A stretch of 64,000 nucleotides of DNA from Candidatus Delongbacteria bacterium (GCA_041675285.1 JBAYTZ010000018.1:7586-71585), one strand, 5' to 3'. Shown: positions 32,766 through 61,973, counted from the first letter of the stretch. Program-made: numbers and translations. The notes: generated from the sequence alone by a model not told the origin.

Positions 32766-32793
32766 GGGGCCCGGCGGCCAGACCCGGGATGAC

Positions 32794-34272: not shown

Positions 34273-34548
34273 ATCACCACAGAGACACAGAGTTTTTATT
34301 GGACTCAGCCTGGGTTGTGAGCTGGATCGACCGAGAGTCCATTTGAACACGAAGTCACGAAGTCTCGAAGATGATTTGTGTCACATGAGGGGAGGGCCGC
34401 TTGTGGCTCATTACCACTGAGGCACACAGGCACAGAGTTCTAGCTGGGCTGCCAGAGGCGCTTGACCTTAGGTTTCTTCCCCCCCATCCCATCCCTTCCC
34501 CACTTCGCAGGGGAAGGGGTCGCACAGGCAAAGGTGTCAGGGATGCTT

Positions 34549-35014
34549 GAGGTGAAGCCCGCAGGGCTGAACCAGAACCAGGTGGTGACGCCGTCAGGCG
34601 GAACCAACTACATGGACACAGGAAGTCCAACCGCCGGCCAGCGGAAGGCCACCGCGAGGTGGCCTGACTCTGGCCGCTGAGAAAGAGCGCTTCTTTGGCT
34701 CCACCTTTCTGGCGCCAGCAGAAAGGTGGAAATCAAGGCAACCCGGCAGTTTCCAGGATGCAAGTGAGGTGATGGGATCCCCCGGTCAAGCCGGGGGATG
34801 ACGAGTTGGATGAGTGAGGTGAAGCCCGGAAGGGCTGAACCAGAAAATGGGTGAAGCGCGAAGCGCGAACCAACTACCTGGAGACAGGAAGGAGCCGCTG
34901 CCGCCAGCGGAAGCCCGCCGGGAGGCGGGCTGACTCTGGCGGGTGAGAAAAAGCGCCTCTTTGGCTCCACCTTTCTGGCGCAAGCAGAAAGGTGGAAATC
35001 AAGGCACCCGGCAG
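34549..35014. repeat. two tandem ~200-nt copies (34549-34749, 34816-35014) of a hairpin-rich element; candidate structured ncRNA pair
   Basis: A conserved P1(6 bp) / internal loop GCGGAA...UGACUC / P2(7 bp, GNRA loop) module shows compensatory changes between copies (cggcca-tggccg vs ccgcca-tggcgg; ggccacc-ggtggcc vs gcccgcc-ggcgggc). Each copy also has an identical 10-bp hairpin ccacctttct...agaaaggtgg. Flanked by the palindromes 34493-34519 and 35046-35067. Confidence 0.6.
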
Positions 35015-35153
35015 GTGACAGGGATGCGGTGAACCCCCATCCCGACCTTCCCCCTGCAGGGGGAAGGGGAGCCTGAGCGAAGGTCAAAACGACCGCTGAA
35101 AAGTGCGGAATGAAAAGAGGCGCTGCGCTGCGCCTCCCAGCGCGAGGATTCTG

Positions 35154-35930
35154 ATGGCCTGGATGGGAAAACTAGTCGGCGGCGGGCTGGGGTGGGCCGT
35201 GTTCGGACCCCTGGGCGCCCTGTTGGGCGGCATCATCGGCAACGCCTTCGACCAGCGTGGCGAGACCCGCGAGATCCCCGAGGACTACTACCGGCACCGG
35301 GGCTGGACGCGCAGCGACCCGCGCTTCAGCGCCAACCCGGCGGGCAACTTCGTGCTGGCCCTGCTGGCGCTCTGCGCCCACGTCATCAAGGCCGACGGCA
35401 CCGTGCGCAGCGCCGAGGTGCAGCAGGTTCGCGACTTCGTCCAGCGCACCTTCCCGCACGACGCGGCCGACCTGATGCAGGTGCTCAAGCAGCTGCTGGA
35501 GCAGCAGGTGGACGTGGGTCCGCTCTGCGCGCAGATCGGCATGCACCTGGGCTATCCCGAACGCCTGGAACTGCTGCAGTTGCTGGTGGCCGTGGCCCGC
35601 GCCGACGGCATCCTCAACCCCGCCGAGACCCGCACCGTGCGCGAGATCGCCCAGCGCCTGGGCATCCGCGAGGCCGACCTGCGCACGCTGTTCGGGGCGG
35701 CGGGTCAAGCCAGCGCGCCGGCCCAGGCCGCGCCGGATCCCTACGAGGTGCTGGGAGTCGCCCGGAGCGCCAGCGACGAAGAACTCAAGAAAGCCTGGCG
35801 CGCGCTGGCCAAGAAGTTCCACCCGGATCGCGTGGCCCACCTGGGCGAGGACCTGCGGCGCTTCTCCGAGGAGAAGTTCAAGTCCATCCAGGGCGCCTGG
35901 GACCAGATCAAGCAGGAGCGCGGCCTCTGA
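35154..35930 (+). CDS. djlA: DjlA-like co-chaperone (TM anchor, TerB-like domain, C-terminal J-domain)
   Basis: TM region [21 protein letters not shown]. TerB-like helical region. C-terminal [32 protein letters not shown] is a J-domain with HPD. Stop overlaps the selB ATG (ATGA). Confidence 0.65.
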
Positions 35931-37858
35931 TGTCCCACATCGTCATCGGCACCGCCGGCCACATCGACCACGGCAAGACCAGCCTGGTGCGCGCCCTGAC
36001 CGGCATGGACACCGACACCCTGCGCGAGGAGCGCGAGCGCCAGATCACCATCGACCTGGGCTTCGCCTTCCTGGGCGAGGACGTGACGATCATCGACGTG
36101 CCGGGGCACGAGCGCTTCATCAAGAACATGGTCAGCGGTGTGGCCACCATCGATTTCGTCCTGCTGGTGGTGGCCGCCGACGACGGAATCATGCCCCAGA
36201 CCCGCGAGCACATGGACATCCTGGGCCTGCTGGGGCTGGAACACGGGCTGGTGGTGATCACCAAGGCCGAGATGGCCGAACCCGACTGGCTGGCCCTGGT
36301 CCAGGACGAGCTGCAGACCTTCCTGCGCGGCACCTTCCTCGAGGACGCGCCCGTGCACGTGGTGGATTCGCTCTCCCTGCGAGGCATCGACGAGCTGCGC
36401 AGCGCGCTGGACGCGGCCCTGCACGCCCTGCCGCCCCGGGAGGGCCGGGGCGCCTTCCGCGAGGTGGTGGACCGCGTCTTCAACGTCAAGGGCCACGGCA
36501 CGGTGCTCACCGGCACGGTGCTGGCGGGCTTCCTGAAGAGCGGCGACGAGGTGGAGATCCAGCCCGGCGGACTGAAGGCCCGGGTGCGCGGTCTGCAGGT
36601 GCACGGCAAGGCCGTGGAGCAGGTCCGCCAGGGCGACCGCGCGGCGCTCAACCTGCAGGGCCTGGCCCGCACGGAGCTGGGCCGCGGCTCCTGGGTGGCG
36701 GCCCCCGGCCTGCTCACACCCACCAGCCTGCTGGACGTGCGCCTGCGCGTGCTGCCCGGCGAGCTCCGCCTCAAACATCGCGACCGCGTGCGCGTGCACC
36801 TGGGCACGGCGGAGTTGATCGGCCGCGTGCTGCTGCTGGGCCGCAAGGCCCTGGAACCCGGCGAGGAGGGCTTCGCCCAGCTGCTGCTGGAGGAGGAGAC
36901 CGCCGCCCTGCTGGGCGACCGCTTCGTGATCCGCCGCTATTCGCCCCAGACCACCATCGGCGGCGGCGTGGTGGCGGATCCCAATCCGCGCCGGCACCGG
37001 CCCTCCGCCGGGCAGGTGGTGGACCGGCTGGAGCGCCTGACCGACGGCAGTTTCGACGAGCAGCTCGAGAGCCTGCTGGACGATCCCTGGCAGCCGCTCT
37101 GGCAGGAGAGCGAGCTGCGCGCCCGCACCGGCGCGGAGCCCGACGAGCTGCGCCCGGAGCTGGAGCGCATGGTCGTCCAGGGGCGCGTGCGGCGCTGCGA
37201 GTGGGGCAGCCGCGTGCACTGGATGCTGAGCACGCGCTGGCAGGAGGCGGGGGAGCGGCTGCTGGAGCGCCTGCGCCGGCTGCACGAGGCCACGCCGGAA
37301 CTGCCCGGGCAGCCTGTGGCCCAGTTGCGGGCGGACCTGTTCTCGCGGCCCGGCTGGCAGGCGCACGCCCAGCCCCTGCTGGACGCGCTGCTGGCGGAAC
37401 TGGGCGGAAAGGGTCTGATCAAACTCGAGAATCGCTGCGCCAGCCTGGCCGGCCACGAGCCGCGCCTCTCGCCCGAGCTGCGTCGACGCACGGATGCCCT
37501 GGTGGACTGGCTGGAGGGCCAGGGCTACGGCGCGCCGCGGCTGGAGGATTTCGCCCAGGCTCTGGCCTGCGGCGTGCCCGAAGTCAAACGCCTGCTGGCC
37601 CTGGCGTTGCAGGAGGGCCGCGTGGAGCAGGCCACTGATCAGATCTTCCTGACCCGCGCGCGGCATCTGGCGGCGCTGGCCGAGCTGCGGGCCCTGGGCC
37701 GCAAGCAGCCCGAGGGCTTCACCGTCAGTCAGGCGGGCGCGCGCTTGAGTGCCAGCCGGCGCTTCATGGTTCCATACCTTGAAGCCCTGGACACCCGGGG
37801 CCTCACCCGGCGCGCCGGTAACTTCCGCAGCGTGGCCGACGGAGCGGGGGACTTGTAG
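35930..37858 (+). CDS. selB: selenocysteine-specific elongation factor SelB
   Basis: G-domain GTAGHIDHGKTSLVRALTG, DVPGHERF, ITKAE. C-terminal winged-helix extension. About 642 aa. Confidence 0.85.
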   Translation: MSHIVIGTAGHIDHGKTSLVRALTGMDTDTLREERERQITIDLGFAFLGEDVTIIDVPGHERFIKNMVSGVATIDFVLLVVAADDGIMPQTREHMDILGLLGLEHGLVVITKAEMAEPDWLALVQDELQTFLRGTFLEDAPVHVVDSLSLRGIDELRSALDAALHALPPREGRGAFREVVDRVFNVKGHGTVLTGTVLAGFLKSGDEVEIQPGGLKARVRGLQVHGKAVEQVRQGDRAALNLQGLARTELGRGSWVAAPGLLTPTSLLDVRLRVLPGELRLKHRDRVRVHLGTAELIGRVLLLGRKALEPGEEGFAQLLLEEETAALLGDRFVIRRYSPQTTIGGGVVADPNPRRHRPSAGQVVDRLERLTDGSFDEQLESLLDDPWQPLWQESELRARTGAEPDELRPELERMVVQGRVRRCEWGSRVHWMLSTRWQEAGERLLERLRRLHEATPELPGQPVAQLRADLFSRPGWQAHAQPLLDALLAELGGKGLIKLENRCASLAGHEPRLSPELRRRTDALVDWLEGQGYGAPRLEDFAQALACGVPEVKRLLALALQEGRVEQATDQIFLTRARHLAALAELRALGRKQPEGFTVSQAGARLSASRRFMVPYLEALDTRGLTRRAGNFRSVADGAGDL

Positions 37859-38156: not shown

Positions 38157-41100
38157 ATGTCCGGCGGGCAGAGCAAGGGAGACTTCGTGAGCGGCACAGG
38201 GCGGGTGATCATCGGGCTGGGGCTGGCCTGCGGGCTGGCCGGGACGGCCCACGGCCTCGTCACCGGCGTCACGCCGGCCCCGGGCTCGCGCTTAAGCCCC
38301 GGCCAGTACATCACGCTGGAATTCAGCCCTTCCATGACCCAGGCGGAGCTCAACCGCCTGGACGACCTGATCGAAATCCGCGACGAGCGGCGCGGCCGCA
38401 TGTACTGGTTCGCCGCGGGCGTGGGCAACGCGCCCTACCAGCGGGTGGTCCTGATCCCCGACGAGAACTGGGTTCCGGGCGGCGCCATCCGGCTGGAGAT
38501 GATGACCGACCCCACCATCCCGGGCGCCACGCTCCAGGCCGCCCACTTCCGCTGGCCCTTCCTCTGCGACAGCTGCGAGTGGCTGGGCGTTCGTCCCTCC
38601 TGGTCCCTGCAGCTACAGGGCGCGGCCAGCGAGGCGCTGGACGTCCTGCCATTGGACCTGGACCGCAACCGGCTGAACGACCTGGTGGTGGCGCGCCGCG
38701 AGCAGATGGTCTTCTTCCGCGTGGACACCTGCGCCTCCACGCCGCAGATCTCCGGACTGGGCGGCATGGCGCTGCCGGACTTCTCGTTGCAACGCGAGCT
38801 GCGTTCCTTAAGCCTGGGCACCAGCGCCGTGGGCGAGCTGCACCCGGGCGAGGGCCTGCTGATGCACACGGGCGGCCAGGACGAGGGCCTGCGCGTGCTG
38901 GCCCGCACCGGGCCGGACAATTCACCCGTCTTCACCCAGCTCCTGCTGGAGGACGGCACCTTCGCCGGCTCGCCGCTGCTGGCCGAGCCCATCCGTCTGG
39001 TGGGCGACCATCTCTGCCAGGATCTGCTGGTGGGCACGCGCGGCGGCGACCTGGTGCTCTTTCCCGCCGACGCGACCTGCTCGCAGATCGAGCCCGACTC
39101 CACGCGCGTCCTGTTCAGCGGCCTGGGCCAGCCCCTGGACCTGCTGGTAATCCAGGGCACGCGGCTGGCCCCCGGGGCCTTCGAGGACTTCGTGCTGGTG
39201 CTGGACGCCGCGCCGGAGCCGCTGCACTGCCTGGTCTGGAACGGCAGCACGCTCGATGAAGTCTGGACGGCGCCGCCGGATCTGGTGCAGAACCTGGAGC
39301 GCCTGGAGGCCTGGAGCGACGGCGATCCCGCCGGCCTGCCCGACCTGATCGCCTGGAACGGCGACGGCCGCGTGGTGGTGGTCTCCAACATCGATCCACA
39401 GACTCAGCAGGCGGAGATCACGGCCTGGGATTTCCCGGAGCCGCTGCGCGACGTGGAGTCGCTGCCCGACGGCCGCGTGGTCTTCGCCGGCTTCTCCACC
39501 GTGCGCTTTACTTTCGATCCCCGCACGGGCCTGACGGACACGCTCTACGCCGACCTGCCCGACGTGCCGCGCCGCCTGCGCGCCATCGACATCAACAGCG
39601 ACGGCGACCACGACCTGCTGGTGCTCTTCCAGGACGGCCGCCTGCTGGCCCACCTGGACGAGCCCGTCGGGGCGGACCGCCTGGACCTGCCCGCGTCCCT
39701 GGCCTGGAGCCGCGTGGCGGTGGGGGACACGCTGCGCGTGCCGCTCACGCTGCGCCACCGCGGGCTGGCCGGCCTGATGCGCCTGGACGTCTCGCCGCCG
39801 CCGGCGGATCCGGACTTCCCCTTCTCCTGGGACGACGTGGCGCCCCGGGACCTGGCGCCGGGCGACAGCCTGGTGCTGGAGCTGCGCGCGCACCCTGCCG
39901 TGGCGCTGGACAGCTGCTGGACCAGCGGCCAGTTCAACGTCTGGTGGAGTTTCCCGGGCTGCGTGGGCCAGAGCGGCCAGGCCGTCCTCGACCTCTGCTT
40001 GCAGGCGGGCCTGGCCACACCGCAGTTCGCGCTGGACAGCCTGGAGCTGGGCTCCGACTGCGGCGGGCACGCCCAGTGCGAGGAGAGCTGTCCCACCGGC
40101 GGGGTCTGGCTGCGCAACGGGGGCGAGGCCGATCTGCTGGTGCGCGACGCCTTCCTGGCCTCCCATCCCGACGACAGCCTGAGCGTGCCGGAGAGCTTCT
40201 GCCTGTTGGAGTGGCCCCAGGCCGCGCTGGCCCCGGGCGACAGCGCCCAGCTGCGGCTCTCCTTCTGCCCGCCCATGGACGGACCCTGGCCCTGGCGCCA
40301 GGGCGCCCTGCTAACCCTGCGCACCAACGCCGCGGGCGCGGACAGCCTGCTGCAGCTGCCCGTGCTGGGCCTGCTCACCTGTCCCTGGCCGCCCCGCTTC
40401 ACGGCGGACCTGCCGGAGATGCCGGAGGACCTGGCCGCCTGGCTGGATCTGGCGCCGCTGATCGAGGATCCCGATAACACGCTCTCGGAACTGAGCTTCA
40501 CCCTGCACGGCCTGACCGGCACGGGCAACCAGCCGGCGGACAGCCTCATGCGGCTGGACGAGCTGGACGGCCTGCGCCTGCACGTGACGCCGGGCCTGAA
40601 CGTCAATAGCGCCCTCCACCCGCAGCTGGGGCTGGACCTGGAGCTGGCCGACCCGTCTGGCAACCACACGCGTGACACACTGCTCTTCGTGATCCGGCCG
40701 GTGGACGACGCGCCCTTCTTCCTGGGCGGGCCGGACTCGCTGCTCACGGTGCGCGAGGGCCGCACCCTGCGGCTGGACTTCCAGTGGGGCGAGGTGGACG
40801 GCGACCCGCTGCTGAACGCCTTCACGCTCTACCGCGACGCGGCCCACCAGGAGCTGGTGGAGAGCACGCCTTTCAGCGGGAACGGCAGCTGGCGCTACGA
40901 GCGGGCCATCGCGCCGGGAGACTCCGCCTTGTTCAACGGTCAACTCTTTTGGGACGCGCGGCTGGCGGACCAGGTCGGGGAGCAGGGCTTCACGGCCGTG
41001 CTGGCCGGCCGCCTGCGCTTCACCAGCCGCCGGGACACGCTCAGCCTGACCGAGGACCGCGAACTGGTGTTGGACCTGGCGGACTGGCTGCTCAGCCCGG

Positions 41101-42266
41101 GCGAGGATCCGGCGGGCATGCAGTCCGAGCTGCTGGGCGTGTTCGGCACCGGGGAGCTGGCGCCGGACGAGGTGCTGGAAGTGGAGGCCCTGGACGGCCT
41201 GCTTTTCCGACTGAGCCCCGCACCGGACGTCAACCTGCGCCAAGTGCCGGGCCTGAGTCTGCTCTTCCAACTGCAGGAGGAGGGCCAGGCCGCCCGCCGT
41301 GACACATTGCGCGTGGCCATCCAGCCCGTGGAGGACGACCCGCGCCTGCTGCTGGCGCCCGCGGAGGGCACGGACCTGCCCGAGGGCGTGGAGACCCTGC
41401 TCAGCTGGGAAGTGGCGGAAGTGGACGGCGATGGGCTGGCGGGCGAGCTCCTGCTCAGCCACCATCCACTCTTCGCCGACACCCTGGCCCTGTTGCCGTT
41501 GGCCGGCGCGACCCGCCGCCTGGATCTGGCCTATCGGCCGGAGGTGGGCGACTCCCTTCGCCTGGGTGGCCGAGTGCACTGGCGCCTGGACGTGTCCGAC
41601 CTGCCGCCGGGCAGCGGCTCTCTGCACGTGCAGCGCGGGCTGGACGTCCTGCAGTCGCCCCAGCAACTTCAGCTCAACCTGCGGGCCGCGCCGCCCGCCG
41701 AAGCCCACTGGGGCGACACGCTCTCCCTGCCGGTGCGGATCTTCTCCGCCAGCGGCTATGTGGGCAGCCTGGTGCTGCGGCTGGAGCAGGACCTGCAAGA
41801 GGCCGCGCGACTGGACTGGCCCTGGCTGGACCTGGGCGCCGCGGCCACGTTGGACACCAGCCTGACCCTGGTGATGCCCCTGGACGGGACGCAGAGCTGC
41901 TGGACCCTGCGCCTCTTGCCCGGCAATCCCGCCGAGGACGAGGCCGACAATCAGCTGTCGGACTGCGTCCAGCTGACCCGCGAGCCCCTGGGTCCGGAGC
42001 AGCGGGCCTTCTCGCCCAATGGCGACGGCGTCAACGACGAGCTGCGCTTCGTGTTCAGCGCGCGGCCCGCGGCGCGCCATTACCGGGTCGAGATCTTCGA
42101 CGCCGGCGGCCGGCGGGTGGCGGCCCACAGCCTGGGCGCCGCCGAACACGCCTGGAACTGGGACGGGCGCCTGGCGGGCCGCGATCTGCTGCCCGGCGTC
42201 TACGCCTGGGTGATGCTGGACGGCGAGCACGTGCTGGCCCGCGGCCAGCTGGGGGTGGTGCGATGA
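38157..42266 (+). CDS. giant secreted adhesin-like protein with FG-GAP-type repeats and a T9SS type-B C-terminal domain
   Basis: Signal peptide. Repeated DxDxNxLNDLVV / IDINSDGDHDLLV (FG-GAP/VCBS-like). C-terminus FSPNGDGVNDELRF...WNWDGRLAGRDLLPGVYAWVMLDGE...LGVVR matches the gliding-motility CTD (type B). About 1369 aa. Confidence 0.6.
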   Translation: MSGGQSKGDFVSGTGRVIIGLGLACGLAGTAHGLVTGVTPAPGSRLSPGQYITLEFSPSMTQAELNRLDDLIEIRDERRGRMYWFAAGVGNAPYQRVVLIPDENWVPGGAIRLEMMTDPTIPGATLQAAHFRWPFLCDSCEWLGVRPSWSLQLQGAASEALDVLPLDLDRNRLNDLVVARREQMVFFRVDTCASTPQISGLGGMALPDFSLQRELRSLSLGTSAVGELHPGEGLLMHTGGQDEGLRVLARTGPDNSPVFTQLLLEDGTFAGSPLLAEPIRLVGDHLCQDLLVGTRGGDLVLFPADATCSQIEPDSTRVLFSGLGQPLDLLVIQGTRLAPGAFEDFVLVLDAAPEPLHCLVWNGSTLDEVWTAPPDLVQNLERLEAWSDGDPAGLPDLIAWNGDGRVVVVSNIDPQTQQAEITAWDFPEPLRDVESLPDGRVVFAGFSTVRFTFDPRTGLTDTLYADLPDVPRRLRAIDINSDGDHDLLVLFQDGRLLAHLDEPVGADRLDLPASLAWSRVAVGDTLRVPLTLRHRGLAGLMRLDVSPPPADPDFPFSWDDVAPRDLAPGDSLVLELRAHPAVALDSCWTSGQFNVWWSFPGCVGQSGQAVLDLCLQAGLATPQFALDSLELGSDCGGHAQCEESCPTGGVWLRNGGEADLLVRDAFLASHPDDSLSVPESFCLLEWPQAALAPGDSAQLRLSFCPPMDGPWPWRQGALLTLRTNAAGADSLLQLPVLGLLTCPWPPRFTADLPEMPEDLAAWLDLAPLIEDPDNTLSELSFTLHGLTGTGNQPADSLMRLDELDGLRLHVTPGLNVNSALHPQLGLDLELADPSGNHTRDTLLFVIRPVDDAPFFLGGPDSLLTVREGRTLRLDFQWGEVDGDPLLNAFTLYRDAAHQELVESTPFSGNGSWRYERAIAPGDSALFNGQLFWDARLADQVGEQGFTAVLAGRLRFTSRRDTLSLTEDRELVLDLADWLLSPGEDPAGMQSELLGVFGTGELAPDEVLEVEALDGLLFRLSPAPDVNLRQVPGLSLLFQLQEEGQAARRDTLRVAIQPVEDDPRLLLAPAEGTDLPEGVETLLSWEVAEVDGDGLAGELLLSHHPLFADTLALLPLAGATRRLDLAYRPEVGDSLRLGGRVHWRLDVSDLPPGSGSLHVQRGLDVLQSPQQLQLNLRAAPPAEAHWGDTLSLPVRIFSASGYVGSLVLRLEQDLQEAARLDWPWLDLGAAATLDTSLTLVMPLDGTQSCWTLRLLPGNPAEDEADNQLSDCVQLTREPLGPEQRAFSPNGDGVNDELRFVFSARPAARHYRVEIFDAGGRRVAAHSLGAAEHAWNWDGRLAGRDLLPGVYAWVMLDGEHVLARGQLGVVR

Positions 42267-43981
42267 AAACCCGACTCACCCGGCTGGCGCTGGTTCTCAC
42301 CATCGGTCTGGCGGCCCGCGCGGAAATGACCTTCACCGGTAACCCGGCCCTGCTGGGGCGGACGGACGCCATGCGGATCAATCCGGCCCTGGCGGCCTGG
42401 CGTCCGCTGGCCTTCTCGGCGGACTGGCAGCTGCTCAACGCGGGACTGGCGGGCGGCGCCGCGGCCATCGGCCAGGGCGGCTTCCAGCTGGCTGTGCCGC
42501 GGGTCAACCTGGTGCTACTGGGCGACCTGCGTGACACAGACCTGCTCAGCGAGAACGAGCTCAGCCTGGACTGGGCCGTGCGGCTGCGCAGCAACCTCTC
42601 GCTGGGCCTGGAGGCCGGCGTGCGGCGCTTCGGCTGGAACCGCGAGCGCCTGGGCGCCGACGCGCTGCAGGATCCCGTCTTCCGCGACGGCCTGGACCGT
42701 CTGCAGCCCCTGCTGGGCGCCGGGCTGTTCTGGGCGCCGCGCACGGACCTCTACGTGGGCTTGGGTCTCAAGCGCCTCAACCGGCCCAGCCTCTCCCTGG
42801 TCTCGTCGGCCCCCAAGGCCCCCGTGCGGGGCTACCTCGGCCTGGCCTGGCAGAGTCCCAGCTTGAGCCTGGGCCTGACCGTGGACAACCTGGCCAACCA
42901 GACCGTGGGCGGCGGCGCGCTGCAGGATCTGGGGAGCGAACAACGACCCAGTCTGCAGGCCGAATGGCGAGCAATGGAGACCCTCTCCGTCTACGGCGAC
43001 CTGCGCCAGGACGGGCTGGCGCTGGAGTTCGCCACCCAGCCGCTGCCGGACCACGAGCTGGCCTATCGCTGGACCGTGCCGCTGGGAGACCTGGCGGAGC
43101 GCTCTGACGGCAGCCACCGGCTGGAGTGGACCTACAGCCTGGGCGGCGCGCTGATTCCCGGCGGACCCTGGCGCGGCCAGCCCGCCCTGTTGCCCGGCGA
43201 CGAACCCCGCGAGGGCGCCCCCTGGCTGGAGGCGCTGCGGCGTCGCTGGCGGCCGGAGCGCGCGCCCCTGCTGCTGCGCAGCCCCGTGCCGCAGCTGGAG
43301 GTGGTGGAACTGCACGTGCACGTGGAGCCCGCGCTGCTGGAGCGCCTGGCCCAGGCGGGGGCGGATCCCGCGGCCCTGGCGGCCTCCGGCCTGACCTTGA
43401 ACCCCGGCAAGGCCCTGACTCCGGACCAGTCCGGCGTGGTGAACGGCACCTGGTCAGCGGCCTGGTGGCAGCTCTCGGGCTGGCTGGAGACGCTGGCCTG
43501 GGACGAGGGCGTGCGGCCCGTGATCCACGTGGGCGACCGGGTGGAGCGGCTGGACGACCTGGCCAATCTCCTGGGGGCCGAACTGGAGGAGCAGCCGCTG
43601 CCCCGGCTGCCCGAGAATGGACGTCTCACGCTGCCCGACACGCTGGCCCTGGGGCTGGAGCTGCCCGAAGAGCTGGCCCGGCTGGCGCGCTCGTGGCGGC
43701 TGGAGGCCGAGCTCCCTGGCCAGGCGCGCGTGGTGCGCGAGGGTCGGGACGCTCCGCCCCGCCGGCTGCAGCTGGCGCTGGATCCCGGCACGCTGGAGCC
43801 CGGCGAGGCCCGGCTGCACGTCACGGTGGCCGACAGTCGCGGACGCCTGCTGGCGGACCGCACCCTCGTGCTGCCCGTCCAGCTCCGCGTGAGACACGTG
43901 CACTTGAGTGAGCAGGCACCGGGAGCGGCGCTCCCGGCGGGCGTGGACCGCATCCACATCCATCTGGACGAACATGAATAG
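42263..43981 (+). CDS. PorP/SprF-family T9SS membrane protein with a ~290-aa C-terminal extension
   Basis: Signal peptide, then ...MRINPALAAW..., and an alternating beta-strand N-terminal half of about 280 aa. It is the standard neighbour of type-B CTD proteins. ATG overlaps the upstream stop. Confidence 0.5.
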   Translation: MKTRLTRLALVLTIGLAARAEMTFTGNPALLGRTDAMRINPALAAWRPLAFSADWQLLNAGLAGGAAAIGQGGFQLAVPRVNLVLLGDLRDTDLLSENELSLDWAVRLRSNLSLGLEAGVRRFGWNRERLGADALQDPVFRDGLDRLQPLLGAGLFWAPRTDLYVGLGLKRLNRPSLSLVSSAPKAPVRGYLGLAWQSPSLSLGLTVDNLANQTVGGGALQDLGSEQRPSLQAEWRAMETLSVYGDLRQDGLALEFATQPLPDHELAYRWTVPLGDLAERSDGSHRLEWTYSLGGALIPGGPWRGQPALLPGDEPREGAPWLEALRRRWRPERAPLLLRSPVPQLEVVELHVHVEPALLERLAQAGADPAALAASGLTLNPGKALTPDQSGVVNGTWSAAWWQLSGWLETLAWDEGVRPVIHVGDRVERLDDLANLLGAELEEQPLPRLPENGRLTLPDTLALGLELPEELARLARSWRLEAELPGQARVVREGRDAPPRRLQLALDPGTLEPGEARLHVTVADSRGRLLADRTLVLPVQLRVRHVHLSEQAPGAALPAGVDRIHIHLDEHE

Positions 43982-44012
43982 CGCAGTCCCAACGCAGACG
44001 AGGTCCCTGACC

Positions 44013-44744
44013 ATGCAGCAGCGAATCCGCGCCTTCCGGGCGCCCCATGCGGCGATCATCCTGACGCTGTGTTCCGTCCTGCCGGCGCTTGCCGCGGAGG
44101 GCGGGGCCGGCGACGCCGCCACCCTGCCCGTGCTGGAGATCCTGGCCATGGGCGGCTGGATCATGTGGCCCATCTACCTGACGCTGGCCGCGGGCGTAGC
44201 CCTCAGCATCTCGCGCTTCCTGATGATCCGCCTGGACCAGTCGCGCGAGAACGCCTTGCAGGACTGGAAACCCCGCGGCCGCAGCGCCGACGACGCCCTG
44301 AAGGCCATCCAGGGCATGGAGACGGGCAGCCTGTCTCAGGCGGCCGTGGACATGCTCACCCAGTTCCGCGCCACGCGCAACCCGGAGTCCATGAGCGCGC
44401 AGATCGAGCGCCACCTCACCGTGCGCCAGGACTGGTTCAAGCCCTATCAGAACTGGCTGAACTTCCTGTCCGAGAGCGCCGGCGCGCTGGGCCTGTTGGG
44501 AACCGTGCTGGGCATGTTCCAGACCTTTTTCGGCGGCACGCTGGACAAGGACAAGGTGCTCCACGGCATGGGCCTGGCGCTGATCACCACCCTGGTGGGC
44601 CTGGTGGTCAGCCTGATCCTCAACTTCGTGCTGACCCTGGTACGCAACCATTTCGACAAGAGTCTGGACCGGCAATACCAGAAGCTCACCGAGATCCGGC
44701 AGGCCATGCTGGAGGCGGGGGCCCTGGATTCCCAGCGGTCGTAG
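44013..44744 (+). CDS. exbB: MotA/TolQ/ExbB proton-channel protein
   Basis: Three TM helices. ...ESAGALGLLGTVLGMFQTF...GMGLALITTLVGLVVS is the ExbB/TolQ core. Confidence 0.75.
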   Translation: MQQRIRAFRAPHAAIILTLCSVLPALAAEGGAGDAATLPVLEILAMGGWIMWPIYLTLAAGVALSISRFLMIRLDQSRENALQDWKPRGRSADDALKAIQGMETGSLSQAAVDMLTQFRATRNPESMSAQIERHLTVRQDWFKPYQNWLNFLSESAGALGLLGTVLGMFQTFFGGTLDKDKVLHGMGLALITTLVGLVVSLILNFVLTLVRNHFDKSLDRQYQKLTEIRQAMLEAGALDSQRS

Positions 44745-44756
44745 GAGCCTGAACCC

Positions 44757-45137
44757 GTGCTGCGACTCATCGACATCGTGCTGATCCTGCTGTTCGGCTT
44801 CATCTCGATCAGCCACTTCGACAGCTCGGTCTCCGTGCAACTGCCCGAGGCCGGCCACATGCCCCGGCTGCAGGCCGAGTTCCAGAACCTGGCCGTGGTC
44901 AGCCTGAACGAGGCCGGGGCATTCGTCTGCGGCCCCGAGCGGCACCAGGTGGCCGACGCGACCGAGCTGCGCGACTGGCTGGCGGGCGAGCAGGCCGCCG
45001 GAGCCACCCAGGTGCGCCTGCGCGCCGACCGCGGCCGGCCGTCCTCGGAAGTGGCCCTGCTGCAGGAATTGTGCGGCGAGCTGGATCTGGGCCTGAGCCT
45101 GGAGATCATCCGCCGCGCCGAGGAGATTCGTCCGTGA
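44757..45137 (+). CDS. exbD: ExbD/TolR biopolymer transport protein (copy 1)
   Basis: N-terminal LRLIDIVLILLFGFISI TM helix and a ~125-aa fold. GTG start, GTAGGAG SD. Confidence 0.7.
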   Translation: MLRLIDIVLILLFGFISISHFDSSVSVQLPEAGHMPRLQAEFQNLAVVSLNEAGAFVCGPERHQVADATELRDWLAGEQAAGATQVRLRADRGRPSSEVALLQELCGELDLGLSLEIIRRAEEIRP

Positions 45138-45589
45138 CACTGATGCGCGGCTACATCACACGCCTGATCGACGTGACCCTGATCATCCTGATCGGCTTCC
45201 TCTCGGTGGCCGACCTGGATGACCGCGCCGTGCTGCCGCTGCCCGCGGGGCTGGCCGCCGTGCTGGACACGCTGGCCCGGGACGAGGCGCAACGCCGGCT
45301 GGAGATCACGGCCACGGAGGCCGGGAGCTTCCTGCTGGAGCTGTCCAGCACCACGGGCCTGAATCTGCCCCTGGGGCGCGTCAGCGGCGCCGACACCCTG
45401 CGCGCCGTGCTGACCCGACTGAAGTCCGAGCACCAGTTGGCCGGGGCGGACGTCCGCTCCTGGCCGCGCGTGCCGCTGCAGACCGCCGTGGACGCCGTGG
45501 ACGCCTGCGACCTGTGCGAGATCCCGCGCGACGTGCGCTTCCTGCCGGAGACGGGCGCGCCGGCCGCCGGGGCGGAGGCGCGGCCATGA
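45134..45589 (+). CDS. exbD: ExbD/TolR biopolymer transport protein (copy 2)
   Basis: YITRLIDVTLIILIGFLSV TM helix. GTG start overlaps the upstream stop (GTGA). Confidence 0.7.
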   Translation: MTLMRGYITRLIDVTLIILIGFLSVADLDDRAVLPLPAGLAAVLDTLARDEAQRRLEITATEAGSFLLELSSTTGLNLPLGRVSGADTLRAVLTRLKSEHQLAGADVRSWPRVPLQTAVDAVDACDLCEIPRDVRFLPETGAPAAGAEARP

Positions 45590-46452
45590 CAACCCTGGAT
45601 CTGCGCGAGCGCCAGTACCGGCTGATCGGCTGGTCCACCAGCCTGCTGGTGATGGCCCTGCTCTGGCTGCTGCTGGCCCAGCTCTCGGTGGATCGGCCCC
45701 GTCAGGGTCCGGCGCCCACCGAGGTGATGCTGAACTGGGTGCGCACCATCGTGCCCACGCCCGTGCGCGACCGGCTGCTCAAGGCGCGGGTGCGCGAGCG
45801 GACGGTGCGCCAAATCGGCCGCAGCGCTCCCCGGCCACTGTCGGTGCCGGACCGCGCGGCCCTGCGAAGCGCACCCCGGGATCCGGGCGCGCTGACGGCG
45901 GTGCCCGAGCGGCAGGGGCGCGGACTGCCCGACCTGCCCGCCCGCGGCGGCGCCCGTCCGGTCATGCCCGGCCGTGGACGACTGTTGGACGGCGGCGATG
46001 AGGTGGGCGGCTCGGGACTGAACCGCGGATCCGCAAACATGAATCTGCGCACGGAGCCGCTGGCCCGGCGTGGCGGAGGCGCCGGGGCGGGTTCGGCGCG
46101 CGGTCCGCGGGGCGAGCTGCTCTCCCTGCCGCCCCAGGAGCTGGACCCCGTGCTGGCGCGCTTCATGGGCGTGACGGCCGCCAGCCTGCCCGGCGGCACG
46201 CTCAATCTGGGCGGTCAGCCCTGGCTGGTCTGGGTGTCCGAGCAGGGCGGCCTGCTGCGCGTGCTGCTGCGGCGCGGCGACGAGTTGCGGCTATTGGTGC
46301 TGGCGGGCGCGGACCTGCAGGCCCAGTCCTTCCAGCGCGGCGAGGTCTCCCGCGCCCGGGGCGGACTGGTGGTGCAGTCCCAGCGCAGCGGGGCGGGCGA
46401 GGCCGCGGGCCTGCGCGAGGATTTGCTCAAGGCATTGGAGGATCTGGAATGA
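45586..46452 (+). CDS. membrane-anchored periplasmic protein in the TonB position; no recognisable TonB C-terminal domain
   Basis: Single N-terminal TM helix, a Pro/Arg/Gly-rich linker, and a C-terminal ~110 aa unlike TonB_C. ATGA overlaps on both sides. Confidence 0.4.
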   Translation: MTTLDLRERQYRLIGWSTSLLVMALLWLLLAQLSVDRPRQGPAPTEVMLNWVRTIVPTPVRDRLLKARVRERTVRQIGRSAPRPLSVPDRAALRSAPRDPGALTAVPERQGRGLPDLPARGGARPVMPGRGRLLDGGDEVGGSGLNRGSANMNLRTEPLARRGGGAGAGSARGPRGELLSLPPQELDPVLARFMGVTAASLPGGTLNLGGQPWLVWVSEQGGLLRVLLRRGDELRLLVLAGADLQAQSFQRGEVSRARGGLVVQSQRSGAGEAAGLREDLLKALEDLE

Positions 46453-47954
46453 ACGGTGCCGGTCGCGGGGTCCGCTGGAGTCTCCCGGCTTCCGCCCTGC
46501 TCCTCATGCTGCTGGCGCTGCCGGGAGCGACCTGGGCGCAGGAGTCGGGCGCGGCCGTGACACGCCGCGTGGATCAGATCCTGGAGGAGGGCAAGGGCCA
46601 GGTGCCCCGCGTGAGCGCCAAGCGGCGCGCGGAGGCCCGGGCCCGCCTGAACGAGGCCGCCGAGCTGCGGAAGCGCACCCAGGACCAAGCCTGGGTGGTC
46701 TGGCGGCTGGACTCGCTGCGCCGCGCGGGCGCGACGGACTCCACGGCCTGGTACGACCTCTACGACAAGGCGCTGCGCCAGATGCAGAGCACGCTCAGCC
46801 TGACCAACAACAAGTACCCGGGCGACATGTCGGCGCGCGAGCTGGGCGCCGTCAAGGAGAGCCTGCGCCGTCAAGCCGCGGAGGGCTACCGCAAGTCCCT
46901 GGGCCTGCTGGAGGACGCGCTGCGGGCCAACCCCTGGGACGACTCCGTCCTGGCGGCCATTGGCGGCGTGCTGGAGGATCTGGCGCGTCTCTACACCAGC
47001 CTGAACTTCCGCGACCGGGCCATCGAGCTGACCCAGAAGCGCCTGGCCCTGGACGCCTCCAACTACTACGCCCACTGGGATCTGGCGGACCTGCTGCGCG
47101 CCGCCGGCCGCGGTCCGGCCGCGCTGGAGCGCTACCAGAAGGCCTGCCGCGCGCTGCGGGCCTTTGCCTTTGAGGACGAGGGCGGCAGCGAGGAGCGCCC
47201 GGTGGGACGGCGGCGCCAGGACCTGGTGCTCCTTCTGCGCGAGCGGGTCTCGCTGGCCATGGAACAGCAGAACGAGGCCGAGTTCCGCCAGGCCATGGGC
47301 GAGTGGGAGCCCCTGGCGGACGCGTCCGACCAGAAGGAGCTGACCCAGCTCAAGCGCTGGCTGCAACGCGGCGGCGGGCGGCTGGGCCAGGCTCTGCGCA
47401 TCGACAAGGCCTGGAAACTCATCGAGCAGGGCCGCGAGATCGAGGCCCGCGAACTGCTCCAGCAGGCGGTGGCGGAGAGCGCCGACCCGCAGGAGAAGAC
47501 CCGCAACCTGCTGGCCCTGGGCGAGCTGGAATTCGACCAGCTGGGCATGAAGGAGGCGGGGCTGGAGCGCGTGCGCGGCCTCTTGACCGAGGGCGTGCGG
47601 GACGACAGCCTGCGCGTGGAGGCCCTGGACACCCGGGGTCGGATGACCCTATCCTTGGCGGCCGAGCTGGAAGAGGAGGATCCCCAGCGCGCCTGGGCCC
47701 TGCTTGAGGAGAGTCTGGCCGCGCCGGGACGCTGGGAGACGGCGCTCTGCCTGCGGCTGGCCGGCCTGCTGCTCAACCGGCCCGAGGCCGCGCTGCCCTG
47801 GCTGCAGCGCGCCGAGGCCGCCTGCTCGCGCGGACCCTGCGACGGCGCGGATCGCGCCGAGCTCTACCAGTTGCAGGCCGACGTGTATCGGCGGCTGGGC
47901 CGCGCCGAGGAGGCGCGCGCGGCGCTGAAGAAGGCCGGCGGAGGCACGCCATGA
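46449..47954 (+). CDS. secreted TPR-like repeat protein
   Basis: Signal peptide and repeated helical-hairpin segments. Lies in the conserved slot after exbB-exbD-exbD-tonB. Confidence 0.45.
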   Translation: MNGAGRGVRWSLPASALLLMLLALPGATWAQESGAAVTRRVDQILEEGKGQVPRVSAKRRAEARARLNEAAELRKRTQDQAWVVWRLDSLRRAGATDSTAWYDLYDKALRQMQSTLSLTNNKYPGDMSARELGAVKESLRRQAAEGYRKSLGLLEDALRANPWDDSVLAAIGGVLEDLARLYTSLNFRDRAIELTQKRLALDASNYYAHWDLADLLRAAGRGPAALERYQKACRALRAFAFEDEGGSEERPVGRRRQDLVLLLRERVSLAMEQQNEAEFRQAMGEWEPLADASDQKELTQLKRWLQRGGGRLGQALRIDKAWKLIEQGREIEARELLQQAVAESADPQEKTRNLLALGELEFDQLGMKEAGLERVRGLLTEGVRDDSLRVEALDTRGRMTLSLAAELEEEDPQRAWALLEESLAAPGRWETALCLRLAGLLLNRPEAALPWLQRAEAACSRGPCDGADRAELYQLQADVYRRLGRAEEARAALKKAGGGTP

Positions 47955-48649
47955 GCCGCCCGCTCTGGACTTTGGCGGCGCTGGGCGCCCTGCTGCCTGC
48001 CACGGGCGGCTCCGCTCCCGGCGACGGGCAGGCCGGCAGCGGACCCCGGGTGGAGGCGCAGATGGTGCTGCGTGCCCGGGTGGAGGATCCCGTGCTGATC
48101 GAGCGCCTGCTCAGCCAGCAGCTGCTGGGCCTGGACGCGCGCGCCGCGGAGGCCGTGGAACTGGTGGACCTGGGCGGCGATGGTTTCGGCGAGGGCGACC
48201 TGCTGCGCCTGCTGCCCGGCGGACAGGGCCATCTGCTGCGCCCCCTGGATCGCGAGCTGCGCGAGACCCTGGCCGGCTGGTCCTTCGCCGCGCACCACGA
48301 GATCCACGCCCCGGCCGACGTGCAGCCGGAGGAGCTGCGCCAGCTGGCTCAGCCCACCGCCGTCCTGCTGGCCGACCTGCTCGGGGCCACCCGGCGCAAT
48401 CTGGGCATCTCACGCTTCGAGCTGGCCCTGGACGTGCGCGAGGACGGTCTGCTGATGCGGGTCTGGGACTATCCGGGCGACAGCCTGTTCGCGCGCCCGG
48501 GCGGCGCGGGCGGACGGCGCGTGCTGGACGTGGTGCAGATCGTGCGCGAGGACACGACCTACGTGGTGGACAAGGTGCTGCGCGACCTGTTGATCCTGGA
48601 GAGCCAGGTGGTGGACACGCTGTACCTGCGCAAGCCGGACCGTCCATGA
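47951..48649 (+). CDS. hypothetical exported protein
   Basis: Hydrophobic N-terminus. Translationally coupled on both sides. No recognisable motif. Confidence 0.3.
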   Translation: MSRPLWTLAALGALLPATGGSAPGDGQAGSGPRVEAQMVLRARVEDPVLIERLLSQQLLGLDARAAEAVELVDLGGDGFGEGDLLRLLPGGQGHLLRPLDRELRETLAGWSFAAHHEIHAPADVQPEELRQLAQPTAVLLADLLGATRRNLGISRFELALDVREDGLLMRVWDYPGDSLFARPGGAGGRRVLDVVQIVREDTTYVVDKVLRDLLILESQVVDTLYLRKPDRP

Positions 48650-50652
48650 ACCTGCGTGCGGGCCTACCCGCGACCTTGGCGGCCTGGCTGCTGGGGGTCT
48701 GCGTCGCCCGGGGAGCGGAGCCGTCGTGGTCCGTCACCCTGCTGGGCTGCGACAGCCTGCGCCTGAGCGGGCGCGCCGCGGGCTGGGACTGGCTGGAGGC
48801 GGAAACGCCGGCCGGATTCCTGGAGCTGGGAGCGGTGGGAGCGGACGGGGCCGTGGACCTGCAGCTGGGCGCGCCGCCGCGCGGCGGGTCGCTGGTGCTG
48901 CGCCCGGCCCGGCTGGACTCGCTGGGTCTGCCGGACTACGGGGACGAGTGGATCTGGAACCGCGCCCTGCCCCGGTTGGAGGCCCGGCTAGAAGGCCGCC
49001 GGCTGGTGGGGCGCGTCCAGCAGGACGGCCGGGACGGGTGTCCCCTGCCCGACCTGATCCTGCGCCTGGAGCACGGCGGCCAGCTCACCGATCTCCAGCG
49101 GCTGCCCGCCGGCAGCTCGTTCGAACTCGATCTCGCCGGCCGCGCCTTCAGCGCGCTGACCCTGGACTGGGGCGGCCTGGGCAAGCCCCTGCGCCTGGCC
49201 GGTCCCGACCAACCCGCCGCCCCTGCCCTGGCCGGTCCGGTCGAGGACGCGGCCCCGGCCGCGCCGGAGTGGGCGGGTTTCGCGGGCGAGGCGCTGGAAC
49301 TGCTCAGCCCCTGGCCGCTGGTGCTGCTGCAGGGCACGGCGACGCTGGAGAATGCCGGCGCCGGACGCTGGCGCGTGACGGCAACCGGGACGGATGAATT
49401 GCTGGTGGCCGCCCGGGACGATGAGGGACGGACCTCGTTGCCCTTCCGCTGGGAGAGCGGCGCGGCGGCCCTGCGGCTGGACGTGCGCCGCACGGGACCC
49501 GGCAGTCTGCAGATCAGCGCACGCGACGCCGTCGTGCCGCCGGAACTCGAACTGGTCTGGCTGGACGGCCAGGGCCGCCAGGGGCGCGCTCCGCTGCCCG
49601 CCGCCGGCCTCACCCTGGAAGGTCTGGCCGGTGTCTGTCGCCTGCAGGCCCTCGGGCCGCAGGGTCCGCTCTGGAAGCAGAGCCTGGATCTGAGCTGGCC
49701 CGCGCCGGGCGGCCTGCGCCTCAGCTCGGCCAGCGACACGCTGCTGACGGCCACGCTGGAGGACGAGCGCGGCTGGAGCGGGCTCTGGGAGCTGGAGTGG
49801 CGCGCCGCGGGCGTCGTCACCCGCCGACCCCCGGCCGCCGCGCACGCCTTCGCCCTGCCGGCGACGGAGCGCCTGCACCTGCGCTGGCGGGCCGGCAGTC
49901 CGCCCAGCCAGAGCCGCTGGTCGGCTTGGCGGGAGATCTCCCTTACGCCCGAACCGCCCGCCGCCGTGGACGTCCGCCCCGCGCCCGGCGGCCTGGAACT
50001 GAACTGGGAGCCGCGCGAGTGGCTGGCCGGCCAGCTGGAGATCGAGCGCGTGCTGGGCGCGGACACCCTGCGCTGGCGGGTGCCCGAGGCGCCGGGAAGC
50101 TGGCTGGACCCGCTGCCCGGCGACCGGTTGGCCCGCTACCGGCTGCGCAGCCGGCTGACCCGCCACCAGAGCGACTGGACCACCGTCTGGGGCGCCCGCC
50201 CGCTGGAGGATCTCCCGGCCGGAACCCTGGCGCGGCGCAGCGTGAGCGTGGCGGAAGTGCGGGCCTTCTCGCGTGAGACCGGGACGGCCCTGCCCGCCGC
50301 CGTCGAGTGGGTGGAAGGCCGGGCCGCGCGGCCCGCCGACGATCAGCCCGCCCTGGGACTGAGCCCGCGGGAAGCGCTGCGGTACTGCAATTGGTTGAAT
50401 GCGCGACTGGGCCTGGACGGCCGCTATGATGAGTCTGCGGCGTGGCAGGCTGGCACGAAGGGTGGCTATCGCCTGCCCGGCACACCGGCGGAAGCAACCG
50501 GGGCGGGGCGGGTCTGGCTGGCGGGCGCGGAAGGCGTGCGGGCCGCCGGCTCCTCGGGGCTGCGCAGCGGCTCCAGCCGCCGACCTTACAGCCTGGACGC
50601 GCGCCAGCCCGACGTGGGGCTCTGCCTGATCTGGAGTCCGCCCGCCCGCTGA
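48646..50652 (+). CDS. exported protein with a degenerate C-terminal FGE-sulfatase (SUMF1 / GldJ-GldK-like) domain
   Basis: Signal peptide. C-terminal VSVAEVRAFSRETG...LSPREALRYCNWLNARLG follows the pattern V..EF.AF...TGy...VSW.DA.AYC.W.g.RL of the FGE fold. Confidence 0.4.
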   Translation: MNLRAGLPATLAAWLLGVCVARGAEPSWSVTLLGCDSLRLSGRAAGWDWLEAETPAGFLELGAVGADGAVDLQLGAPPRGGSLVLRPARLDSLGLPDYGDEWIWNRALPRLEARLEGRRLVGRVQQDGRDGCPLPDLILRLEHGGQLTDLQRLPAGSSFELDLAGRAFSALTLDWGGLGKPLRLAGPDQPAAPALAGPVEDAAPAAPEWAGFAGEALELLSPWPLVLLQGTATLENAGAGRWRVTATGTDELLVAARDDEGRTSLPFRWESGAAALRLDVRRTGPGSLQISARDAVVPPELELVWLDGQGRQGRAPLPAAGLTLEGLAGVCRLQALGPQGPLWKQSLDLSWPAPGGLRLSSASDTLLTATLEDERGWSGLWELEWRAAGVVTRRPPAAAHAFALPATERLHLRWRAGSPPSQSRWSAWREISLTPEPPAAVDVRPAPGGLELNWEPREWLAGQLEIERVLGADTLRWRVPEAPGSWLDPLPGDRLARYRLRSRLTRHQSDWTTVWGARPLEDLPAGTLARRSVSVAEVRAFSRETGTALPAAVEWVEGRAARPADDQPALGLSPREALRYCNWLNARLGLDGRYDESAAWQAGTKGGYRLPGTPAEATGAGRVWLAGAEGVRAAGSSGLRSGSSRRPYSLDARQPDVGLCLIWSPPAR

Positions 50653-61396: not shown

Positions 61397-61969
61397 ATGT
61401 TCATGCGGCGATTCATCGGAGCGCAGCTGCTGCCCTCGGGCCTGATCTTCGGGTCTCTGCTGGCCGTTGCCCTGCTGGTGGACTGGGCCTTGCACCAGGC
61501 CGGCCTGGCTGGGGTGGGCCGCTGGCTGGGGCCGGTGGGCGTGGGCCTGTTGGCCCTCTCCTTTCTTCATTCCTTTCGGCGCCGCAAACTGCTGCGGCTG
61601 GGCTCGCCCAAGGGCCTGTTGCAGCTGCACGAGACCCTGGGTTGGCTGGGCGCCCTGCTCCTGCTCGTGCACGGGGGCATCCACCTGAACGCCGTGATTC
61701 CCTGGCTGGCCCTGCTGGCCATGGTGCTGGTGGTGGCCAGCGGCCTGACGGGCAAGTTCCTGCTGGCCGAGGCCCGCCGGCGCCTCGCGGCGCGCCGCCG
61801 GGAGCTCGAGGCCCTGGACCTGGATCCGCACGAGACGGAGCGCCGTCTGCAGACCATGGCCCTTCTGACCGGCACCTTGCAGCGCTGGCGCAGCATCCAC
61901 ATGCCGCTGACCCTCGCCTTCGCCGGCCTGGCTCTGGTCCACGTCGCCGTCACCCTGTTGCTCTGGTGA
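61397..61969 (+). CDS. small 4-TM membrane protein with conserved His in helices (possible b-type haem / quinol-interacting partner)
   Basis: About 190 aa with four hydrophobic helices. His in LLLVHGGIHLN and LALVHVAV. CAGGAG SD. 4 nt before the decahaem cytochrome gene. Confidence 0.35.
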   Translation: MFMRRFIGAQLLPSGLIFGSLLAVALLVDWALHQAGLAGVGRWLGPVGVGLLALSFLHSFRRRKLLRLGSPKGLLQLHETLGWLGALLLLVHGGIHLNAVIPWLALLAMVLVVASGLTGKFLLAEARRRLAARRRELEALDLDPHETERRLQTMALLTGTLQRWRSIHMPLTLAFAGLALVHVAVTLLLW

Positions 61970-61973
61970 AGCC

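Follow-up and report, generated by a model that had tools for sequence, protein, structure and literature searches.

A conserved gene module joins PorP/SprF-type carriers and type-B cargo proteins to an ExbBD-type motor in Candidatus Delongbacteria and distant lineages

How force is delivered to bacterial outer-membrane proteins is an active question. It is raised by nine plus-strand genes (g1 to g9) at 38157-50652 of the window, a 64,000-nucleotide (nt) stretch of DNA from a Candidatus Delongbacteria bacterium (GCA_041675285.1, JBAYTZ010000018.1:7586-71585), where genes for a surface protein and its carrier share an operon with genes for a proton motor. Does this motor serve the surface protein? 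We consider it probable (about 60%) that g1-g8, with g9 as an accessory, would constitute a self-contained machine, driven by the proton-motive force, that spans the envelope and is dedicated to a single carrier-cargo pair. This reading is built on gene content, domain identities, obligate linkage and co-inheritance, all of which were observed directly.

Nine genes form one coupled operon

An independent gene caller, applied to the 152-kb metagenome contig ENA ERZ27247358 k141_190027, to which the window belongs, returned the same nine genes that an earlier note on this DNA had described as a translationally coupled operon:

g1, 38157..42266, plus strand: secreted surface protein (the cargo), 1369 amino acids (aa), with a signal-like helix at its N terminus and a type-9 secretion system (T9SS) C-terminal domain of type B at ~1283-1353
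g2, 42263..43981, plus strand: 'long PorP/SprF' outer-membrane carrier, 572 aa, with an N-terminal barrel of ~300 aa and a C-terminal extension of ~270 aa
g3, 44013..44744, plus strand: proton channel of the ExbB/TolQ/MotA family, 243 aa, with subfamily motif AGALGLLGTV
g4, 44757..45137, plus strand: ExbD/TolR paralog 1, 126 aa (PF02472, 25.6 bits against a cutoff of 25.4)
g5, 45134..45589, plus strand: ExbD/TolR paralog 2, 151 aa (PF02472, only 15.3 bits)
g6, 45586..46452, plus strand: candidate force transducer, inner-membrane-anchored, 288 aa, with one transmembrane helix, a linker and a novel C-terminal domain
g7, 46449..47954, plus strand: tetratricopeptide repeat (TPR) protein with a signal peptide (periplasmic), 501 aa (TPR_12, 31.9 bits)
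g8, 47951..48649, plus strand: protein of 232 aa with an N-terminal signal-like sequence and the motif D-x4-G-F-G-x2-D-x5-P
g9, 48646..50652, plus strand: protein of 668 aa with a signal peptide, ~6 FN3/immunoglobulin (Ig)-like beta-sandwich domains at 27-517 and a degenerate half FGE-sulfatase domain at ~527-612

Direct reading of the junctions revealed six 4-nt overlaps, ATGA at 42263, 45586, 46449, 47951 and 48646 and GTGA at 45134; g2 and g3 are separated by 31 nt, and g3 and g4 by 12 nt. Relatives in which g9 is only 52-59% identical keep the same overlaps, and we therefore judge that these did not arise by chance. No internal terminator-like site stood out in a terminator scan of g1-g9, and the promoter/terminator scan (sigma-70) was uninformative.

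The module is linked and co-inherited across distant lineages

A word-indexed search found 7 homologs of g6 and only 8 of g9 among 5.8 billion proteins. ExbB reached further: homologs at 64%, 39% and 37% identity sit in the same cluster. When an ExbB alignment was scanned against species-representative genomes, 80 loci (79 distinct) were obtained, and these were annotated with hidden Markov models (HMMs) built from the module. One KSB1 contig, whose flanks are wholly different, has the order TPR - FG-GAP/CHU_C adhesin - 600-aa protein - ExbB - ExbD - ExbD - 349 aa - TPR - 251 aa. Pairwise BLAST showed that g2-g8 are homologous between the window and this KSB1 locus, g6 weakly (E 0.002).

A long PorP gene (~600 aa) was present on the ExbB strand in 72 of the 79 distinct loci; the other 7 are truncated contigs. 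The loci belong to Delongbacteria, KSB1, Calditrichota, Zixibacteria, Balneolales/Rhodothermales, Melioribacteraceae, Zhuqueibacterota and a short Gemmatimonadota contig, and include one cultured carrier, Rhodohalobacter sp. 8-1. As judged from these genomes, the linkage spans at least seven phylum-level lineages. Where enough flank was available (44 loci), the cargo C-terminal domain, PorP, ExbB, two ExbD, g6 and g8 occurred together in 38; the six exceptions are explained partly by truncation at contig ends and partly by sub-threshold matches of g6 or the cargo domain. Three gene orders were found: cargo-PorP-ExbB-ExbD-ExbD-6-7-8 (order 1, 51 loci), PorP-ExbB-cargo(s)-ExbD-ExbD-6-7-8 (order 2, 15 loci) and ExbB-ExbD-ExbD-6-7-8-cargo-PorP (order 3, 3 loci).

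Seven metagenome-assembled genomes (MAGs) have two to three modules each. Every component in them was closer to its counterpart in a different genome's same-type module than to its own paralog (PorP, 15/15; ExbB, 15/15; the two ExbD, 14/14 and 14/14; g6, 14/14; g7, 11/11; g8, 9/9). Because the components co-diverge in such matched sets, the modules appear to have been inherited, and to have diverged, as whole units. Matched sets of this kind would be expected for a specific complex and unexpected for a housekeeping motor that happens to lie nearby. The linkage, its three gene orders and the co-diverging sets bear out the earlier proposal that the adhesin/SprF genes and the exb block are one unit, and the related genomes in which that proposal was to be checked do carry the arrangement.

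A minimal variant was observed in one 5.2 Mb genome (CP070762.1; locus L010, 8213-11870), where a PorP_SprF protein of 575 aa is followed by an ExbB of 306 aa and a VWA protein of 312 aa. ExbD is absent among the called genes of this locus, which resembles the 'tolQ plus vWA without tolR' class (PMC12204202) but adjoins a PorP barrel. The labels of some MAGs conflict: the near-identical locus L012 is labelled 'Acetofilamentum sp.' (Bacteroidaceae in NCBI), L013 and L014 are labelled 'uncultured Bacteroidaceae', and the proteins of the window are assigned to Candidatus Delongbacteria. One identical contig (L088/L090) has been deposited both as KSB1 and as Phycisphaerae.

The cargo has a type-B domain and the carrier is a probable long PorP

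The PF13585 CHU_C model scored 27.4 bits with full-length g1 (cutoff 27) and 33.1 bits with its isolated C-terminal domain, which upholds the type-B domain ascribed to g1 earlier. TIGR04131 gave 20-26 bits, under its cutoff of 35. The cargo C-terminal domains of related modules matched both CHU_C and TIGR04131 in 58 of 58 cases. Beyond this domain, conservation of the g1 body is confined to Delongbacteria. The earlier note had also called g1 a SprB-like FG-GAP adhesin. The FG-GAP assignment was not supported: Pfam found no FG-GAP family in g1, and the strict DxNxDGxxD (Ca-loop-like) motif occurs once, at residue 478. The likeness to SprB stands as far as the type-B C-terminal domain goes; Pfam and NCBIfam matched nothing else in g1, and no SprB sequence or model was compared.

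Cargo bodies differ among the loci. FG-GAP, ASH, cadherin-like and CARDB domains are found in KSB1, and VWA plus CHU_C proteins or small CHU_C proteins in order 2; Ig domains also occur among the cargo bodies. A constant type-B domain on varying cargo bodies is what a carrier-binding signal should look like. The cargo repertoire, with VWA proteins and the FG-GAP proteins of KSB1, looks integrin-like. Two order-2 loci (L075:10767-12161 and L053:11624-14152) encode VWA plus type-B proteins and a protein that combines VWA, cohesin and dockerin-like parts with a type-A C-terminal domain.

The carrier g2 scored 21.2 bits against PF11751 PorP_SprF (cutoff 22.3) and 28.7 bits against TIGR03519 (cutoff 90.55). 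An exhaustive phmmer search yielded 59 relatives, mostly of 560-620 aa. PF11751 was matched by 44 of the 49 relatives scanned (best E 4.6e-19), and the orthologs in L050 and L047 pass the cutoff. Because its relatives match PorP_SprF, g2 is by transitive homology probably a 'long PorP'; the PorP/SprF identity given to it in the earlier note is supported to that extent, though g2 itself scores below the cutoff. Across phyla the extension is conserved, with a FlgD-like Ig motif in it; the g2 of the window has a degenerate form of this motif. In 6 of the 49 relatives, an OmpA domain replaces the tail. Since this periplasmic domain occupies the same position in those relatives, the ~270-aa extension of g2 is probably periplasmic. 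The translation of g2 has zero cysteines, and the twin cysteines of SprF sensu stricto are absent.

A separate ExbB subfamily and a novel candidate transducer

The channel protein g3 matched PF01618 MotA_ExbB with 55.6 bits (cutoff 22.9). Against the ExbB/TolQ equivalogs TIGR02797, TIGR02805 and TIGR02796 it scored 13-23 bits (cutoffs 135-221), and it lies far below every ExbB/TolQ/MotA equivalog cutoff. The set had been described as built from canonical Exb parts; given these scores that description is loose, and g3 belongs to a separate ExbB subfamily. The transmembrane motif of g4, RLIDIVLILLFGF, including its proton-binding Asp, was kept in 29 of 29 orthologs, as was the transmembrane Asp of g5 (RLIDV). 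The g5 orthologs in L009 and L011 pass PF02472. Neither sequence nor fold comparison matched the motor to GldL/GldM (PorL/PorM).

Longer ExbB proteins (420-530 aa) were observed at L050:9812-11404, at L018:9836-11110 and in other KSB1, Calditrichota and Balneolales loci. Their C-terminal extension has Ig-like domains (Big_1, DUF4198-like) and no extra predicted transmembrane segment, so the Ig domains would be cytoplasmic, which is odd. A GldM-like periplasmic role for this extension was considered and rejected: no transmembrane segment is added, and the ExbB of the window has no extension.

The candidate transducer g6 has no Pfam or NCBIfam match. In its AlphaFold2 (AF2) model, a helix (3-35) is followed by a disordered linker rich in Arg, Pro and Gly (~86-170) and by a C-terminal domain (171-288) modelled at pLDDT ~90. 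This domain is a six-strand meander with a helix, and fold comparison against the PDB matched it neither to TonB/TolA nor to any solved fold. The statement in the earlier note that g6 is without a TonB C-terminal domain therefore holds, both in the family searches and in the modelled fold. In its topology g6 belongs to the TonB/TolA-like class, and its place after the second ExbD is conserved. At L005:478-1331, the g6 ortholog is broken into two open reading frames of 76 and 205 aa, probably by a frameshift or an assembly error.

g8 is a core component and g9 a lineage-specific accessory

Relatives that share only 52-59% identity in g9 share 80-87% in the TPR protein g7, which was found in most complete modules. 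Its neighbour g8, which had been passed over in the earlier note, gave no match in Pfam, NCBIfam or the PDB. Seven of its residues (D73, G78, G80, D83, P89, W110 and W172) do not vary among 30 orthologs drawn from different phyla. On this conservation g8 is a core, highly conserved member of the module, and it is predicted to be periplasmic.

For g9, an FGE fold had been claimed. PF03781 FGE-sulfatase scored 14.9 bits (E 0.022; cutoff 23.3). The AF2 model (pLDDT 73) has a C-terminal domain of only ~100 residues, and Foldseek against the PDB returned FN3 arrays only and nothing on the C-terminal domain. An HMM built from the canonical FGE genes of Zixibacteria matched g9 at ~527-612 (E 3.6e-9), covering only positions 13-98 of 221, the N-terminal part. 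Judged by these matches, the FGE homology of g9 is real but partial, and the domain is truncated and degenerate; the claim is kept in its homology and loses its full fold, since only ~85 of 221 positions are covered. No lipoprotein Cys is conserved (the lone signal-region Cys of g9 is not conserved among the 8 homologs).

Two Zixibacteria loci have three FGE-domain genes each directly after g8 (L023:14662-18513 and L063:14651-18642), and the three of these genes that were scanned with Pfam are canonical FGE-sulfatase (E 1e-17 to 7e-30). FGE genes at the module are confined to Delongbacteria (degenerate half-domain) and Zixibacteria (canonical), and are absent from KSB1, Calditrichota, Balneolales and others; g9 is for this reason regarded as accessory and not core. 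An FGE protein is thus no part of the conserved set, contrary to what had been proposed, and the PorK/GldK leg of the analogy is weak for the window. The candidacy of g9 as a core GldK analogue was ruled out, because the modules of KSB1, Calditrichota and Balneolales have no g9. The product of one of the Zixibacteria genes (L023:16543-18513) combines FN3 domains with a plausible lipobox (VLIGC), which calls to mind the lipoproteins GldJ and GldK.

Surroundings of the module in the window

The GC content of the window is ~72%, and scans found zero Rfam families and tRNAs in it. Directly upstream of the module are selA, a djlA-like gene and selB (32680-37858), as also in L007 and L008. Delongbacteria with an ExbB of only 37% identity keep this placement too, an unusually stable synteny of selenocysteine genes with the module. 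The product of a plus-strand gene at 24914-26590 carries a T9SS sorting domain of type A (Por_Secre_tail, 43.6 bits), which indicates that the organism uses the T9SS for other cargo too. An island at 3997-16234 has a GC content of ~0.62-0.66, against ~0.72 elsewhere, and encodes glycosyltransferases GT4 and GT2 together with an NAD-dependent epimerase and a Wzy_C protein resembling O-antigen ligases/polymerases; it has the look of a locus for surface polysaccharide and may have been acquired horizontally. Two further plus-strand genes are unrelated to the module: one for a 1180-aa protein with a weak DUF4175 match (18457-21996) and one for a multihaem c-type cytochrome (c3/c7-like; 61911-62882).

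A proposed path of force from the motor to the carrier

From the observed gene set we infer which parts touch, how they lie in the membranes and what the force is for, as follows. A pentamer of the ExbB-type g3 and a heterodimer of the ExbD-type g4 and g5 would assemble in the inner membrane into a 5:2 proton motor. Beside it, g6 would be anchored by its one transmembrane helix and span the periplasm on the disordered linker in the manner of TonB/TolA. Its novel C-terminal domain, aided by g7 and g8 as adaptors, would engage the ~270-residue periplasmic tail of g2, whose barrel would hold the type-B C-terminal domain of the T9SS-exported g1 at the cell surface. Motor force reaching this carrier-cargo complex could pull it from the T9SS translocon, or could shift the adhesin within the outer membrane or put it under tension. 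With its FN3 array and half FGE domain, g9 would be a lineage-specific periplasmic accessory.

Precedents in the literature lend plausibility to each step. Type-B cargo remains attached to a PorP-like carrier dedicated to it (PMC9143113). SprF's C-tail in the periplasm was found in 2025 to be mechanically coupled to the GldJ/K/N track that a motor drives, and the step of type-9 transport that requires energy is the one in which carrier-cargo complexes are ejected from the translocon (PMC12635249). Non-TonB transducers that adjoin tolQ, tolR and TPR genes were proposed from genomics in 2025 (PMC12204202). In the Agl-Glt core, outer-membrane proteins and an adhesin are the targets of a set of one TolQ-like and two TolR-like proteins together with TPR proteins and a TonB-like anchor (PMC3169522).

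Several points weigh against the machine proposed here. The transmembrane helix of g6 has no conserved His/SHLS motif in the 28-sequence alignment. In TonB and TolA, this motif in the transmembrane helix serves docking to the motors. The g2 of the window lies just under the PorP_SprF cutoff, and the Ig-like motif of its tail is degenerate. Because g2 has no cysteine, the disulfide mechanism of SprF and GldK cannot apply to it. Synteny among Delongbacteria extends to flanking housekeeping genes, and close relatives alone would not prove linkage. Synteny in close Delongbacteria was therefore dropped as proof, and the argument from linkage rests on the distant phyla and the rearranged gene orders.

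Alternative explanations

If an ordinary Ton operon simply lay beside an adhesin/SprF pair, with no functional link between them, the syntenic flanks of the Delongbacteria loci (selA-djlA-selB upstream; His_Phos, AmiA and M1 peptidase downstream) would be easy to understand. However, the linkage persists across phyla with different flanks and a rearranged internal order, the components co-diverge as sets, the stop of g1 overlaps the start of g2, and g2 and g3 are only 31 nt apart. We give this explanation very little credence; in our genome comparisons, mere adjacency is effectively excluded by the cross-phylum linkage and the matched sets. A system of outer-membrane tethering or stabilisation, similar to Tol-Pal and serving lineages without tol-pal, deserves more weight, although we consider it unlikely. 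Here g3-g5 would correspond to TolQR, g6 to TolA and g7 to CpoB/YbgF, g2 would be a Pal-like outer-membrane partner pulled by its periplasmic tail, and the type-B protein would be a passenger. The ExbB/TolQ and ExbD/TolR proteins, the anchored transducer and the TPR protein do resemble Tol-Pal with CpoB, the OmpA domain found in 6 of 49 g2 relatives is peptidoglycan-binding, and tol-pal loci are missing in Bacteroidetes, in which undiscovered stabilising systems are expected (PMC12204202). Yet Pfam and NCBIfam searches of g1-g9 revealed no TolB-like/WD40 propeller, Pal lipoprotein or OmpA match. The linkage of the type-B protein is as tight as that of the motor genes, and two to three diverged modules per genome, each with its own cargo, would be unexpected for a housekeeping envelope system.

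The module might instead be a divergent TonB-type importer, in which g1 would capture a substrate and the motor would gate the g2 barrel through g6, a design akin to a SusCD-like or TonB-dependent transporter with a PorP barrel as its base. The topology of g6 is TonB-like. The order exbB-exbD-exbD-tonB-TPR is the usual layout of Ton operons in bacteria of the Fibrobacteres-Chlorobi-Bacteroidetes (FCB) group, and the module mirrors it with its transducer in the place of tonB. Against import, no TonB_C, TonB-dependent receptor, plug domain or SusD-like gene was found with Pfam and NCBIfam, the related cargo domains are of adhesin type (FG-GAP, VWA, cadherin-like), and PorP/SprF barrels are known as carriers and not as channels (PMC9143113). 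Import seems improbable to us, somewhat more so than a Tol-Pal-like role.

Comparison with known systems

The dedicated carrier-cargo machine that we favour resembles the SprB-SprF pair, which runs on the GldLM-powered GldJ/K/N track of Flavobacterium johnsoniae. In both, a type-B cargo gene adjoins a dedicated PorP/SprF-type barrel that has a periplasmic C-terminal part, and a 5:2-type proton motor is implicated in acting on the carrier, for the module by our proposal; FGE-fold proteins accompany the module in two lineages. Unlike the Gld system, the module has a motor of ExbB/ExbD type and not GldL/GldM, and its core is without a GldK/N ring or track gene. Its motor genes share an operon with each cargo and are duplicated together with it. 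SprF has a short twin-cysteine tail with a disulfide to GldK (PMC12635249, PMC9143113), whereas the tail of g2 is ~270 aa long, Ig-like and cysteine-free.

The Ton system shares with the module one ExbB, two ExbD with a conserved transmembrane Asp, a single-pass, long-linker protein and a TPR protein, all in the same order. It differs in that g6 has neither the TonB_C fold (PF03544) nor the SHLS/His motif, g3 scores far under the ExbB/TolQ equivalog cutoffs, and the outer-membrane partner is a PorP-type barrel and not a TonB-dependent transporter. By architecture the module is also like Agl-Glt of Myxococcus xanthus (AglR/Q/S, GltG, GltD/E/C; PMC3169522), which combines a TolQ-like and two TolR-like proteins, a TonB-like anchor, TPR proteins, barrels and a surface adhesin. 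Both occur as several specialised paralogous copies per genome, and some related modules have VWA-domain cargo, as the Agl-Glt adhesin CglB is a VWA protein. Unlike in Agl-Glt, the adhesin of the module would be delivered through a T9SS C-terminal domain and retained on a PorP barrel; Agl-Glt is found in Myxococcota and Gammaproteobacteria, whereas the distribution of the module is FCB-related. The vWA-type transducers (PMC12204202) are similar to g6 in having a TonB-like topology, a C-terminal domain that is not TonB, and synteny with motor and TPR genes. The C-terminal domain of g6, however, is not vWA and matches no solved fold, and g6 has no SHLS, which is reported for one class of vWA transducers (PMC12204202).

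Implications

Literature searches found no published description of a PorP/SprF-ExbBD module, in agreement with the remark in the earlier note that the combination is not a described system. Each part is of a known class, and their combination may be an unrecognised way to power cell-surface proteins. The sequence features fit PorLM-like, Ton/Tol-like and Agl-Glt-like modes of action equally. A broader proposal is possible, and we put it forward tentatively, with less than even confidence: the module would be a widespread, hitherto unrecognised machine of FCB-related bacteria in which a dedicated ExbBD-type 5:2 motor mechanically drives individual PorP carriers and type-B adhesins by way of a periplasmic transducer of a new class (g6, with g7 and g8), either as a second route, independent of GldLM, to adhesin propulsion and gliding, or as an energy chain for cargo-specific release from the T9SS.

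The module joins two active lines of research, the motor-tied SprF carrier (PMC12635249) and the new non-TonB transducers (PMC12204202). It is present in many little-studied lineages, among them KSB1, Calditrichota, Zixibacteria, Delongbacteria, Balneolales/Rhodothermales and relatives of Ignavibacteria, is duplicated with different adhesin cargos and occurs in at least one cultured isolate, so that the proposal can be tested directly. If the proposal is correct, the FG-GAP and VWA adhesin cargos would parallel integrin-like focal adhesions, and the family of machines powered by 5:2 motors would gain a new member. A module that drives adhesins would change the view of motility, adhesion and type-9 secretion outside the classical Bacteroidota.

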